Below are positions 38,580-41,590 of a stretch of 64,000 bases of DNA, in pieces. Below the pieces are notes generated by a model. It searched no databases, had not been told where the DNA came from, and saw only the letters and a list, made by a program, of their open reading frames with translations. Numbering within the stretch: position 1 is the first letter of the stretch; each line of letters begins with the position of its first letter. The stretch comes from Chlamydiota bacterium (GTDB taxonomy: Bacteria > Chlamydiota > Chlamydiia > Chlamydiales > Rhabdochlamydiaceae): assembly GCA_013287985.1 (NCBI GenBank), contig JABDCT010000001.1:86989-150988 (forward strand), given 5' to 3'. A program made the position numbers and the translations under genes.

Positions 38580-38749
38580 AGAGGGTGTCTAGAAATTAAG
38601 GCTTCGTCGATTTTAGGGATTATTTTGGCCTATTTTCGATTCAAATTGCAGGGGTCATATACGCAGTTGATATTACCCCTGCAATTTGAATCGAAAATAG
38701 GCTCAAAAGAACCCGAAAATCGACAGAAGCTAATTTCTAGACACCCTCT
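38580..38749. repeat. 170-bp imperfect palindromic element (family B, copy 1) with 19-nt terminal inverted repeats
   Basis: Terminal arms are agagggtgtctagaaatta (38580-38598) and taatttctagacaccctct (38731-38749). The inner 27-bp stem gcctattttcgattcaaattgcagggg / cccctgcaatttgaatcgaaaataggc is perfect. The element starts 5 nt after the stop of the 37505..38575 gene. Confidence 0.85.
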
Positions 38750-38751
38750 AA

Positions 38752-38773
38752 GGGAGACTAAAGTCTCCCTTTT
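38752..38773 (+). terminator. Rho-independent terminator following palindromic element
   Basis: gggagac-taaa-gtctccc followed by tttt. Confidence 0.55.
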
Positions 38774-38783
38774 GTAAAGACAC

Positions 38784-38939
38784 CTAGATCTTCCCGACGA
38801 GTATCAGGATGATGATGATAATCAAGATAATGGTGAGACCACCAAAAGGATAGTAACCCCACCCTCTGCTATAGCGCCATGATGGAAACGCTCCAATCAA
38901 AAGCAAAATTAAAAGAATAAGTAAAACAGTACCTAACAT
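38784..38939 (-). CDS. DUF3309-type small membrane protein (51 aa), copy 2
   Basis: MLGTVLLILLILLLIGAFPSWRYSRGWGYYPFGGLTIILIIIIILILVGKI from the ATG at 38939. The track's 63-aa version starts further upstream. Confidence 0.7.
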   Translation of the reverse strand: MLGTVLLILLILLLIGAFPSWRYSRGWGYYPFGGLTIILIIIIILILVGKI

Positions 38940-39085
38940 AAAACCCCCAATTACGGTTAACCTTCCAATTACCAAAAATCTTTATTTAATCATAACTTTT
39001 TCAAACAAAAACACTCGTAGAGATTAATTCTCATTTGCAATACAATAATTCTCTTTGAAGATAGCCTCTTAAGCAGGAGAATTTT

Positions 39086-40180
39086 ATGTCATTTATCCAA
39101 CCTCCAAATCCAAACCATCGTTTAGTTCAGCCATTGCCCACCCCAATAGAGCTGATCAACCGCAGCTACGTCCAAGCAGATGACTCGCTCTCATCGTGCC
39201 CAGTCTGTGGCGGTTGTCTCTCTACGATCGTTTCCTACATCACAGGCTTCTTCTCTTGGCTCCTTTCCTTCCTTCCCTGCTCGGGAAGCGAAAAGCCCCA
39301 GGAGGATCCTGTGATTGATCAGAGAAATGCCGAGGTTTTTGATGAGACCTATAAATTCTGCCACGATGAGGTGCAGAATCAGTCTCCTTTAGGGCAACAA
39401 ATCAAAGAGGCCATCGATCATACGTTTTATTATGCTCCGACTAGCAAACTGACTCCGAAAGCAGCATCAAATAGCAACACCCAGTTCTACATAAGTAATG
39501 GAGATCGCATCGGACTCGCCCACTCTCTAGCTCTTCCAAAGCAGAGCGGTAAAGGAGAGCGCGTTCCATTAGCCCAAGTTCTAGCTGGGGAAAGCGCAAA
39601 TATATCCGTCCTTCTGCTCAACCCCGCTGATGGAAAGACTCCAGGTGGCGAGAAAAAAGGAGCTAAAGGGTATGAAGCAACAGTTTGTCGCCGTACTGCT
39701 CTCTATCCTTGTCTCAGAGGACATTTTGAAGATAAGCCTGAACATCTCTCTCAAGGCAACTGCGCTCTCTTAACTACCAAGGTCCCCATCTTGCGCTATG
39801 GTTCAGATCGCGACTATGCGTTTATCCCTGAAGAGGAACGTACCACCATTTCGATTTTTTCAAGCGCGGCTCCACAATATCCCGCTCTTAGTGAGGATAA
39901 CAGTAGCTATGCTGATCCTGGTATGCGTCAGCAGATGAAAGAGCTTATCTACCGGCAATTTTCCGCTGCCTTCCAAGGCAGCTCTCCATACTCCGCTCTA
40001 GTTCTTACCGCTTTCGGTTGCGATGTGGGCCATCCACCCAAAGTCATTGCTGAGCTCTATAAAGAAGTTATTAAAGAATATTATCCCAATATCTTCCCTA
40101 AGATCTTTTTTGTGCTAAAACCCGAGCAAAATAAGGCTTTTGCAGATGTATTTGATACTGCACAAATGATAAGCTCATAG
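39086..40180 (+). CDS. TIGR02452/DUF2263-family protein, paralog 2 with degenerate catalytic/ADP-ribose-binding motifs
   Basis: The N-terminus is collinear with paralog 1 (DDSLSSCPVCGGCLSTIVSYITGFFSWLLSF). The motifs are altered: LLLNPADGKTPGGEKKGAKGYEATVCRRTALYPCL and TAFGCDVGHPPKVIAELY. Confidence 0.7.
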   Translation: MSFIQPPNPNHRLVQPLPTPIELINRSYVQADDSLSSCPVCGGCLSTIVSYITGFFSWLLSFLPCSGSEKPQEDPVIDQRNAEVFDETYKFCHDEVQNQSPLGQQIKEAIDHTFYYAPTSKLTPKAASNSNTQFYISNGDRIGLAHSLALPKQSGKGERVPLAQVLAGESANISVLLLNPADGKTPGGEKKGAKGYEATVCRRTALYPCLRGHFEDKPEHLSQGNCALLTTKVPILRYGSDRDYAFIPEEERTTISIFSSAAPQYPALSEDNSSYADPGMRQQMKELIYRQFSAAFQGSSPYSALVLTAFGCDVGHPPKVIAELYKEVIKEYYPNIFPKIFFVLKPEQNKAFADVFDTAQMISS

Positions 40181-40182
40181 GA

Positions 40183-41442
40183 ATGCACACCCCTCTTGCC
40201 GATCGCCTCCGTCCCTCCTCTCTGGAAGAGATAGCTGGCCAGGATCACCTGGTCGGCTCTACAGGATGGGTGACGCGCGCCATCAAGGGGGGAAGGCCTC
40301 TTTCGATCCTGCTCTGGGGGCCGCCGGGCTGTGGGAAAACCACCCTCGCCCGCCTCTACGCCAAAGCCTTCGATCTGCCCTTTGTCACCTTTAGCGCCGT
40401 TTTCAATGGCGTTGCCGACCTCAAAAAGCTCATGAAAGAAGCCCAAGAGACACCGCTCTTTCGCCGTCAGATCATGATCTTCGTCGACGAGATCCACCGC
40501 TTCAATCGCGCTCAGCAGGACGCCTTTCTGCCTTTCGTGGAAGACGGCTCTTTGATCCTGGTCGGCGCCACGACCGAAAATCCCTCGTTTGCCCTCGTCA
40601 GCGCGCTTCTTTCACGCCTGCGCGTCCTTGTTCTGCACCCCTTAAGCGAAGAGGCTCTGCTCTCTCTGGTGGAGCGTTATGAAGCCGCGTCGGGGCCACT
40701 CCCCATTACCCCAGCTGCCAAAGAAGCCCTCGCCTCGCTATCCGCCGGCGATGCACGCCATCTCTTCAATATGATCGAATCTCTCAGCCTAGTTCCCCAA
40801 GATACGATCATAGACACCCCCGAACTGCTCCAGTTCGTTCAGAAACGCCCAGCCCACTATGACAAAGCCGACGACGGCCATTACAATCTGATCTCCGCTC
40901 TGCACAAAGCCGTGCGCGGCTCCGACCCCGATGCGGCGCTCTACTGGCTCTGTCGCATGTTAGAAGGCGGCGAAGACCCGCAGTTCATCGCCCGTCGCAT
41001 GGTGCGCATGGCGAGCGAAGATGTGGGCCTTGCCGATCCTCAGGCCCTTGAACTCACTCTAAACGCCTGGCGCGCCTACGACCAGCTCGGATCGCCCGAG
41101 GGCGAGCTAGCGCTTGCCCAGGCGCTCATCTATCTCGCTCTTGCCCCGAAAAGCAACGCCCTCTACACCGCCTATGGCCAGGCGCGCGAACTGGCCAGCA
41201 AAACCAGCTCTGAGGCTCCGCCAAAAATCATCCTCAATGCACCGACAAAGCTCATGAAGAACCTCGGCTACGGCAAAGGCTATATCTACGACCATGACAC
41301 AAAAGCGGGATTCTCGGGGCAGAACTACTTCCCCGACGGGATGGAGCGGCAGGAGTTTTACCAGCCTGTGGAGCGCGGCTTTGAGCGCGACCTGAAAAAG
41401 CGGATGGACTATTTCGCTAAATTACGGAACCTATCCCAATAA
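40183..41442 (+). CDS. rarA: Replication-associated recombination protein A (RarA/MgsA AAA+ ATPase)
   Basis: PLADRLRPSSLEEIAGQDHLVG, Walker A GPPGCGKTT, Walker B IFVDEIHRFN, LVGATTENPSF, and the C-terminal HYNLISALHKAVRGSDPDAALYWL.RML..GEDP.FIARR. Confidence 0.92.
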   Translation: MHTPLADRLRPSSLEEIAGQDHLVGSTGWVTRAIKGGRPLSILLWGPPGCGKTTLARLYAKAFDLPFVTFSAVFNGVADLKKLMKEAQETPLFRRQIMIFVDEIHRFNRAQQDAFLPFVEDGSLILVGATTENPSFALVSALLSRLRVLVLHPLSEEALLSLVERYEAASGPLPITPAAKEALASLSAGDARHLFNMIESLSLVPQDTIIDTPELLQFVQKRPAHYDKADDGHYNLISALHKAVRGSDPDAALYWLCRMLEGGEDPQFIARRMVRMASEDVGLADPQALELTLNAWRAYDQLGSPEGELALAQALIYLALAPKSNALYTAYGQARELASKTSSEAPPKIILNAPTKLMKNLGYGKGYIYDHDTKAGFSGQNYFPDGMERQEFYQPVERGFERDLKKRMDYFAKLRNLSQ

Positions 41443-41590
41443 TATCTTTCGTCGATTTTCGGGATTATTTTGGCCGATTTTCGATTCAATTTGCAGGGGT
41501 CATATTCGAAGTTGATATTACCCCTGCAAATTGAATCGAAAATCGGCTCAAAAGAACCCGAAAATCGACTGAAATATATTATTGGGATAG
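41431..41590. repeat. 160-bp imperfect palindromic element (family B, copy 2)
   Basis: The core 41449-41573 is roughly 93% identical by eye to 38604-38728. The perfect inner stem is gccgattttcgattcaatttgcagggg / cccctgcaaattgaatcgaaaatcggc. The outer 15-nt arms ctatcccaataatat (41431-41445, including the last rarA codons and stop) and atattattgggatag (41576-41590) are unrelated to copy 1. Confidence 0.85.

Follow-up and report, generated by a model that had tools for sequence, protein, structure and literature searches.

The DNA analysed here, referred to throughout as the window, is a stretch of 64,000 nucleotides from a Chlamydiota bacterium of the Rhabdochlamydiaceae (GenBank assembly GCA_013287985.1, contig JABDCT010000001.1, positions 86,989 to 150,988 of the forward strand). 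It contains two long palindromes at the 3′ ends of plus-strand genes. Copy 1 follows a gene for a microbial-type PARG (37505-38575), and copy 2 lies over the end of rarA (40183-41442), which encodes replication-associated recombination protein A and whose final codons are element-derived. Both palindromes are very probably copies of a non-autonomous DNA transposon of ~170 bp, that is, a miniature inverted-repeat transposable element (MITE).

The two copies share a core of 126 nt in the same orientation (38603-38728 and 41448-41573, plus strand), which aligns without gaps at 92-94% identity and was recovered in both alignment and fold. The core motif has four matches in the window against 0.02 expected. 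In copy 1 the core is bounded by terminal inverted repeats (TIRs), GAGGGTGTCTAGAAATTAAGGC on the left (38581-38602, plus strand) and, by TIR comparison, GCTAATTTCTAGACACCCTC on the right (38729-38748, plus strand). Outside these is a direct TAA/TAA target site duplication (TSD) at 38578-38580 and 38749-38751, read from the sequence and in the TSD test. The left TAA lies 2 nt past the stop codon of the PARG-like gene (38573-38575), so that the element itself begins 5 nt past that stop. In copy 2 the TIRs are GAACCTATCCCAATAATATCT (41427-41447, plus strand) and, again by comparison, ATATATTATTGGGATAGGTTC (41574-41594, plus strand). A probable TTA duplication is formed by a rarA Leu codon at 41422-41424, 2 nt (CG) before the GAACC tip, and, in the TSD test, by 41595-41597. 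The left TIR of copy 2 encodes NLSQ and the rarA stop codon (41440-41442), i.e. four codons and a stop rather than the three and a stop of the original prediction. The limits first proposed (38580-38749 and 41431-41590) were roughly right and are here corrected to 38581-38748 for copy 1 and about 41425/41427-41594 for copy 2, giving a length of 168-170 bp. The placement immediately after stop codons, noted at the outset for both, is near the mark for copy 1, whereas copy 2 supplies the stop codon itself. Only chance open reading frames (ORFs) of at most 50 aa overlap the copies.

Folded as RNA with their outer arms, the copies each form one long hairpin (-110.0 and -113.2 kcal/mol). Shuffled sequences average about -36 to -38 kcal/mol (z ~ -19), and 0 of 200 fold equally well, so the two hairpins that had been predicted around a core of ~125 nt are real. 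Copy 1 folded as DNA reaches -74.6 kcal/mol (z = -21). The full stem is ~85 bp per copy, outer arms included, and its inner part is uninterrupted as described, for 28 bp in the RNA fold of copy 1 rather than 27 bp. The two cores differ at eight positions. Four of these make two compensated pairs, in alignment columns 58/132 (T-A vs G-C) and 73/117 (A-T vs T-A), which bears out the compensatory changes on opposite arms that had been reported; two others fall in the apical loop and two at consensus-unpaired positions, one of which (column 40, A vs C) breaks a pair in copy 1 alone. The outer arms of the two copies are each palindromic and share 33% identity with one another.

Copy 1 sits exactly at the joint of a tandem gene-pair duplication (36673-40180) comprising two genes for a small DUF3309 protein on the minus strand (36673-36828 and 38784-38975) and, on the plus strand, two genes for a microbial-type PARG (37505-38575 and 39086-40180). 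Identity between paralogues is 77-81%. Segmental duplication as the origin of the two elements was rejected: the PARG paralogues share 77-81% identity against 94% for the elements, and the copies occupy non-equivalent positions in the units.

An exact 19-base pattern from the core was found at 43 loci in 10 metagenome-assembled genomes (MAGs; GTDB species representatives), which are labelled Rhabdochlamydiaceae, Parachlamydiales, Chlamydiae or (PVC) Verrucomicrobiae; retrieved loci are designated below by L numbers. A BLAST search with the core over the retrieved loci and the window gave 63 segments, a number that includes both window copies and the two element edges of L001; full length is reached by 40, at 76-95% identity. 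The family is therefore not confined to the two copies first seen. The core of copy 1 is 85-95% identical to copies in the 10 MAGs, and identity between the two window copies (92%) is no higher than with copies from other MAGs (up to 95%), while coding flanks common to the window and the carrier MAGs share 65-72% identity. The chlamydia from which the window comes lacks a near relative among sequenced organisms: in a set of 5.8 billion protein sequences nothing exceeds 71% identity to its RarA, the named best matches coming from Simkaniaceae, Chlamydiae and Rhabdochlamydiaceae MAGs. A Logan contig bearing the same rarA begins and stops inside the two window copies, which is what a repeat that breaks assemblies would produce.

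Among 39 full copies with flanks, the outer arms sort into TIR classes, A to F, that are common to several genomes and include both window classes. Consequently the outer arms are palindromic and mutually unrelated, as originally stated, but they are alternative TIR classes shared with other genomes. Class A has the TIR GAGACTGTTGTCGAATTAAGGC and class B AGACCTCTTGCATAACTAAGGG. Window copy 1 carries a variant of class C (GAGGGTGTCTACAAAGTAAGGT), a class found in MAG MFD03323, and copy 2 is a member of class D (GAACCTATCTCAATAAAATTT), which also occurs at L018:4811, at L029:2687-2849 and in L019. Complementary tips of 20-23 bp were present in 39/39 full copies. As every class has an inverted matching tip at the other end, the unit is TIR plus core plus TIR, ~170 bp in all. 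An exact 3-bp direct repeat stands beside the motif-fixed tips in 19 of 35 copies, a count that omits four further copies whose duplications were missed by the tip regular expression; on permutation of the right flanks (10,000 trials) the count averaged 4.5 and never exceeded 12. Inverted triplets were never seen beside these tips, and the 3-bp repeats are therefore not a mere extension of the palindrome. Classes A and C duplicate TAA, TTA, TGA or TCA; class B duplicates AAT, ATT or TAT.

The same core is found with at least four TIR classes, and the same TIR class with different cores (L029, L019 and L044:2917-3094); these alternative cores have wholly different stems and retain the apical stem-loop. 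A nested model, in which the core inserts into existing short palindromes, was rejected, given that no TIR pair lacking a core-like hairpin was found among the chlamydial loci and that the TSDs flank the TIRs. In two MAGs the same intergenic site is occupied (L038 6212-6339 and L037 2854-2980, with flanking proteins ~65% identical), past a probable trmB-like gene, judged by eye from its translation, and 12 nt ahead of the next ATG. The TIR classes of the two copies differ and the apical loop of L038 is inverted; the shared site may be one ancient insertion or a hot spot. The class B right ends of L005, L007, L009, L016, L018 and L025 read ...GCAAGAGGTCT, followed within a few bases by ATG in several loci. 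From the sequence, the AAGAGG of class B could act as a ribosome-binding site for the downstream gene; start-codon calls extend ORFs maximally upstream, and the proximity of starts to the element is therefore unreliable.

Both window copies bear marks of insertion. Homologous RarA proteins end in ...KLR followed by a short lysine-rich tail, e.g. DDLKKMPSR, KKKPSCP or DKKMPHR. The window RarA ends in ...KLRNLSQ*, where NLSQ* is encoded by the class D TIR. Directly past copy 2 lies the displaced rarA 3′ end, VKKKPSR* (41598-41621, plus strand), which resembles the homologue tails and returns to the rarA frame when the insert is removed. Copy 2 therefore landed eight codons ahead of the original rarA stop. 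The exact empty allele of this site had 0 matches in the JGI metagenomes. Copy 1 has the stop of the PARG-like gene on one side and, on the other, a hairpin with a TTTT run after it (GGGAGACT..AGTCTCCC TTTT; 38752-38774, plus strand), which is outside the element beyond the TSD and was both read from the sequence and seen in the fold. This hairpin is probably the original terminator of gene 37505-38575, split off by the insertion; a consensus terminator scan did not report it. The reconstructed empty sites of the window read ...GATGTAATCTAAGGGAGACT... and ...GCTAAATTA(CGG)GTCAAAAAAAAACC....

Empty orthologous sites were found in relatives, one of the checks suggested with the original prediction. 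L026 (MAG AAO_H125.78) has the element where L044 (MAG MBR_H125.77) is uninterrupted, with flanks 91.5% identical. The window region 19832-21744 is syntenic with L044 and has no element at 21134-21552, where L044 carries one between the same genes. In L026 (~160-345) a second, unrelated MITE with ends AGACTCCGTCAAAAA / TTTTTGACAAAGTCT directly adjoins the element. Copies also decay. Solitary TIRs are cut at varying points; the one at 24926-24945 of the window (plus strand) is identical to the left TIR of copy 1, is preceded by TTA, overlaps the stop of a minus-strand gene (24941-25594) and is a remnant of a decayed copy. A terminator-like hairpin (24886-24916) adjoins it. An internal-deletion derivative was found in L012, and in L032 (6569-6897) another palindromic element, ~165 bp long and of a different kind, interrupts the apical loop of a copy.

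A/T-rich duplications of 3 bp and TIRs beginning with GA point to an enzyme of the IS5 / PIF-Harbinger type. A scan of JGI metagenomes for the class B TIR without a following core gave 11 loci, and in 9 of these the class B 21-mer is the extreme end of a conserved non-palindromic sequence. Complete insertion sequence (IS) copies with the class B TIR at both ends (AGACCTCTTGCATAACT...) are present in L045 (944 bp) and L050 (941 bp). A 909-bp relative in L047 has 21-bp TIRs that share only the tip AGACCTCTTGC with class B, and an ATT/ATT duplication flanks both L050 and L047. Two overlapping ORFs of the class B IS match HTH_Tnp_4 (E 6e-16) and DDE_Tnp_4 (E 8e-20) and cover model positions 2-135 and 127-283 of NCBIfam transpos_IS5_4. 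The core has no similarity to the IS interior beyond the TIR. By analogy with other pairings of an IS and a MITE, this partner would fix the mechanism for class B. Between the TIR pairs of the chlamydial loci no transposase was found, the intervening ORFs being ordinary genes, and the core had 0 matches in viral contigs. At L047 ~90-115 and L054 ~82-107, two element ends abut head to tail with a 3-bp target between them (GCAAGAGGTCT-AWT-AGACCTC), which suggests that one copy inserted directly against the end of another already in place.

Pairing within the element is maintained, with covariation far beyond controls. Across 41 sequences with TIRs, 95.9% of cells pair and double changes occur in 42 of 63 pairs, compared with 17.2 +/- 2.0 after shuffling and 15-21 when the partners are slid. 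For the core alone (39 close copies), 97.8% pair and 16 of 44 pairs have double changes (2.5 +/- 1.2 in shuffles, 1-5 with slid partners). The original inference that pairing is maintained is thus upheld. Relative to genes, the copies are read into in the plus orientation 19 times and in the minus orientation 16 times. The mean minimum free energy (MFE) is -101.3 vs -99.6 kcal/mol for the two strands, the plus strand folding more stably in 23 of the 39 (p = 0.065). Random orientation and equally good folding of the two strands give no support to a strand-specific RNA. In L038 the apical loop is exactly reverse-complemented with respect to the usual loop, and the arms retain the usual asymmetry; this is a flip that arose by arm-to-arm recombination or template switching in duplex DNA. 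At quasi-palindromes, template switching between the arms yields "compensatory" pairs even when RNA is not under selection, and we regard it, together with founder effects of well-paired master copies, as the likeliest origin of the covariation.

Taken together, these data make it very probable that the two palindromes are copies of a MITE. Among the candidates listed in the original prediction (a REP, MITE or Correia-like element) the MITE is upheld by TIRs, TSDs, dispersed copies, empty sites and an IS with the same TIR, and the REP and the Correia-like element fall away. In the mechanism that we propose, a DDE transposase of the IS5 family (HTH_Tnp_4 plus DDE_Tnp_4, PIF/Harbinger-like), supplied in trans, would bind the TIRs, excise the element and reinsert it at A/T-rich triplets (TNA in classes A and C, AWT in class B). 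Compact chlamydial genomes would tolerate such insertions at gene boundaries only. Copies would come to lie at or over stop codons because TNA and AWT targets resemble stops and because copies survive only at gene boundaries; some supply the stop codon themselves. Classes C and D presumably have cognate IS5-type transposases of their own, which chlamydial genomes would carry or would once have carried. The palindromy is likely to be kept by processes at the DNA level, namely template switching or recombination from arm to arm and the founding of new copies by well-paired masters; a strand-specific RNA function would not be required. A transcript entering a copy would gain a hairpin of ~85 bp and might thereby be stabilised, terminated or marked for RNase III.

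Several observations weigh against the MITE interpretation. Copy 2 has no clean TSD, TTA/TTA being obtained only if two extra bases of the left tip are counted; other class D copies have TTG/TTG with an offset of 0-1 nt. The single class B IS copy traced to a host (L046) lies on a contig of a Firmicutes MAG, and Clostridia-like gene contexts surround two homologues (L056 and L057) of its transposase. Homologues of ~60% identity are named in Orientia and Candidatus Tisiphia, and it is suggested that the IS group with the class B TIR circulates across phyla. A tblastn search with the IS transposase found no homologue in ~400 kb of chlamydial loci plus the window, and scans of viral contigs found no transposase with class A, C or D tips (0 for A and C, one chance match for D). 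Moreover, the core is 86% identical between genomes (92% within) and the TIRs 52%, the reverse of a textbook MITE, which hints at a constraint on the core. In the plus orientation G.T mismatches exceed A.C mismatches (131 vs 36 cells; 54 vs 34 column-by-genome combinations), a weak hint of a preferred folded strand. Finally, nearly all apical loops are C-GNA-G or C-GNRA-G, which suggests that folding itself is under selection.

These features agree with a core module that spreads horizontally and exchanges its TIRs, and they leave some room for a further account, which we consider unlikely: the 126-bp core would be a portable hairpin module under selection of its own, spread horizontally among distant chlamydiae, re-fitted several times with resident IS5-type TIRs and kept at the ends of genes by what its folded DNA or RNA does there, be it insulating or terminating transcription, being processed or binding a protein. 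It draws on the asymmetric internal loop conserved in all copies, on the GNRA and GNA loops and on a core identity of 86-95% beside flanks of 65-72%.

An RNA role is less probable still, and we regard it as very unlikely that the hairpin is kept mainly as a portable 3′-end stabiliser, terminator, insulator or RNase III site, with transposition as mere delivery. ORFs of at least 100 aa do stop within 20 nt of the TIR, or inside it, at 24 of about 80 element ends. The compensatory changes maintain pairing, the apical loops are of the GNRA/GNA type and the core is much better conserved than neighbouring genes; a symmetric hairpin would also act either way round, so the missing orientation bias is no exclusion. 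However, the hairpin is not followed by a T-run, copy 1 lies upstream of a separate hairpin and T-run that resembles the gene's own terminator (though absent from the terminator scan output), and copy 2 destroyed the native end of rarA. Orthologous sites in relatives are empty, and copies decay into solitary TIRs and deletion derivatives. The 3′-end stabiliser or terminator put forward at first is for these reasons, and with copies in both gene orientations, not retained. An intrinsic terminator as such was rejected because neither copy has a T-run after its hairpin; a terminator scan of the copies returned only small internal minus-strand sites (5 vs 4.0 expected).

It has also been considered that the core is a DNA-level hairpin module read as folded single-stranded DNA, by an HUH/tyrosine enzyme as in REP/RAYT or IS200/IS605 systems, as an attC-like site or as a host protein site, and that it repeatedly acquires different TIRs. 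The exchange of TIR classes and cores described above would fit, as would the inverted loop of L038 and the apical stem-loop, conserved more than any other part even with replaced lower stems (L044:2917-3094, L019); GNA triloops are stable DNA mini-hairpin loops. Yet the TSDs flank the TIRs rather than the core, a TIR pair without a core-like hairpin was not seen and the neighbourhood contains no HUH, RAYT or integrase gene. REPs are far smaller, their stems measuring 5-13 bp (PMC3733652). A likeness of GTTGATATTA to CTTGATA of rolling-circle nick sites was rejected since the GTT part of GTTGATA varies among copies (GCC, CCC, GCT, ACC). This account is highly improbable. The size and anatomy of the element also exclude it from the attC sites.

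The structured non-coding RNA also proposed originally, here taken as a small-RNA or riboregulator gene with a single transcribed strand, is scarcely credible: strong covariation, the asymmetric internal loop and bulge conserved in all copies and the G.T excess in the plus orientation speak for it, but no Rfam family matches at threshold (only generic miRNA-hairpin models, with scores well under their cut-offs, e.g. 47.6 vs 211 bits), gene orientation is random, the strands fold equally well, no conserved promoter or terminator was found, and the unit, with its TIRs and TSDs, occupies an orthologous site in one genome and is missing from it in another. For the window as a whole, Rfam 15 gave 0 matches at gathering thresholds, with sub-threshold matches to miRNA-precursor hairpin models only.

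If the MITE interpretation holds, it has practical consequences. MAGs are almost the sole source of knowledge on environmental chlamydiae, and a repeat of this kind, if not recognised, breaks their assemblies. The element rewrites gene ends, here the C-terminus of RarA and elsewhere about 13 other genes to which it supplies the stop codon, and it can pass for an RNA gene in annotation. A core nearly identical in genomes that are distant at the family level, together with a class B TIR in a Firmicutes IS, suggests recent transfer of mobile DNA among intracellular bacteria. Strong compensatory covariation can come from a palindromic DNA transposon without any strand-specific RNA, which calls for caution in covariation screens. 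Full-text searches of the literature returned no description of MITEs or palindromic repeats in chlamydiae.

Other repeats and features are present in the window. An unrelated element of 166 bp at 5715-5880 is palindromic over its full length (RNA MFE -124 kcal/mol; ends ATACCACAACCTAATG... / ...CGTTAGGTTGTGGTAT) and probably represents another hairpin-MITE family; no further copies were found in the retrieved loci and the window. A 64-bp palindrome of CACAGAGATCACAGAG units at 5280-5343, one arm of which recurs in loci of MAG PMV_8.15 (L011 ~1963-1985 and L028 ~6497-6518), is another small repeat common to chlamydial genomes. Directly past an amino-acid permease gene (35153-36580), a near-perfect 32-bp stem with a 4-nt loop and then T8 (36584-36651) looks like a strong, possibly bidirectional intrinsic terminator. 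Tandem repeats of 21/24 nt at 1674-1815, coding for lysine/proline/alanine units, are suggestive of a histone-like or low-complexity basic protein. At 60868-62870 a recurring 32-nt motif codes for FTYDxxGRLI (YD/RHS-repeat-like), in a region of strongly negative GC skew.

The element can finally be set against known families of bacterial repeats. Repetitive extragenic palindromes (REPs) are 20-40 bp long, with stems of 5-13 bp, loops of 2-20 nt, a GTAG or CGTC head and no TIR or TSD (PMC3733652). With the REP/BIME repeats of RAYT systems the element has in common that it is an extragenic palindromic repeat, with a CGTC motif at the edge of its core (TTCGTCG). Membership was rejected on a length of ~170 bp, a stem of ~85 bp, and the TIRs and TSDs. 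The ERIC/IRU sequences of enterobacteria are likewise imperfect palindromes (~127 bp) in transcribed intergenic regions, found across species in either orientation. ERIC is not known to have a defined TIR, TSD or transposase partner.

Rickettsia palindromic elements (RPEs) are palindromic repeats of 100-150 bp in obligate intracellular bacteria and can enter coding sequence; they typically lie in frame inside ORFs and are not known to have clear links to TIRs, TSDs or a transposase. An RPE-like status was rejected, as no credible ORF spans a copy and the copies lie between ORFs or replace only their last codons. Some RPEs have been classed as CGTC REPs (PMC3733652), and the chlamydial element is not REP-like. 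The Correia/NEMIS elements of Neisseria are likewise palindromic MITEs, of 100-160 bp with TIRs of ~26 bp, sited at the ends of genes and transcribed together with their neighbours. RNase III cleaves their hairpin RNA; they duplicate TA, and their 26-bp TIR is Neisseria-specific. Membership was rejected on the 3-bp TSD and the different TIRs; the host phylum differs as well.

The nearest relatives are the MITEs of the IS5 family and PIF-Harbinger, such as Tourist-like elements and the bacterial MITEs that share TIRs with a resident IS. As expected of a MITE, the element is below 500 bp and non-coding and has TIRs, a TSD of fixed length and dispersed copies with presence or absence between genomes. 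A TIR in common with an autonomous IS was found for class B; for the window's classes C and D none was found in the scans of viral contigs. The hallmarks of the IS5 family (HTH_Tnp_4 plus DDE_Tnp_4, ~0.9 kb, a short A/T-rich TSD) are borne by the class B partner only. The element is unlike such MITEs in that its body is one near-perfect hairpin of ~85 bp, in that it combines a core conserved from genome to genome with TIR tips that differ by class, and in that no cognate IS was found in ~400 kb of chlamydial sequence. It is like them in its small non-coding unit, its TIRs of ~20 bp, its TNA/TWA-like TSD of 3 bp, its dispersed copies and a class B TIR identical to that of a DDE_Tnp_4-bearing IS of ~940 bp; a 3-bp TSD is also what IS5 subgroups and Harbinger elements make. 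The palindromes of the window would accordingly represent a new MITE family of a familiar kind rather than a new RNA gene.

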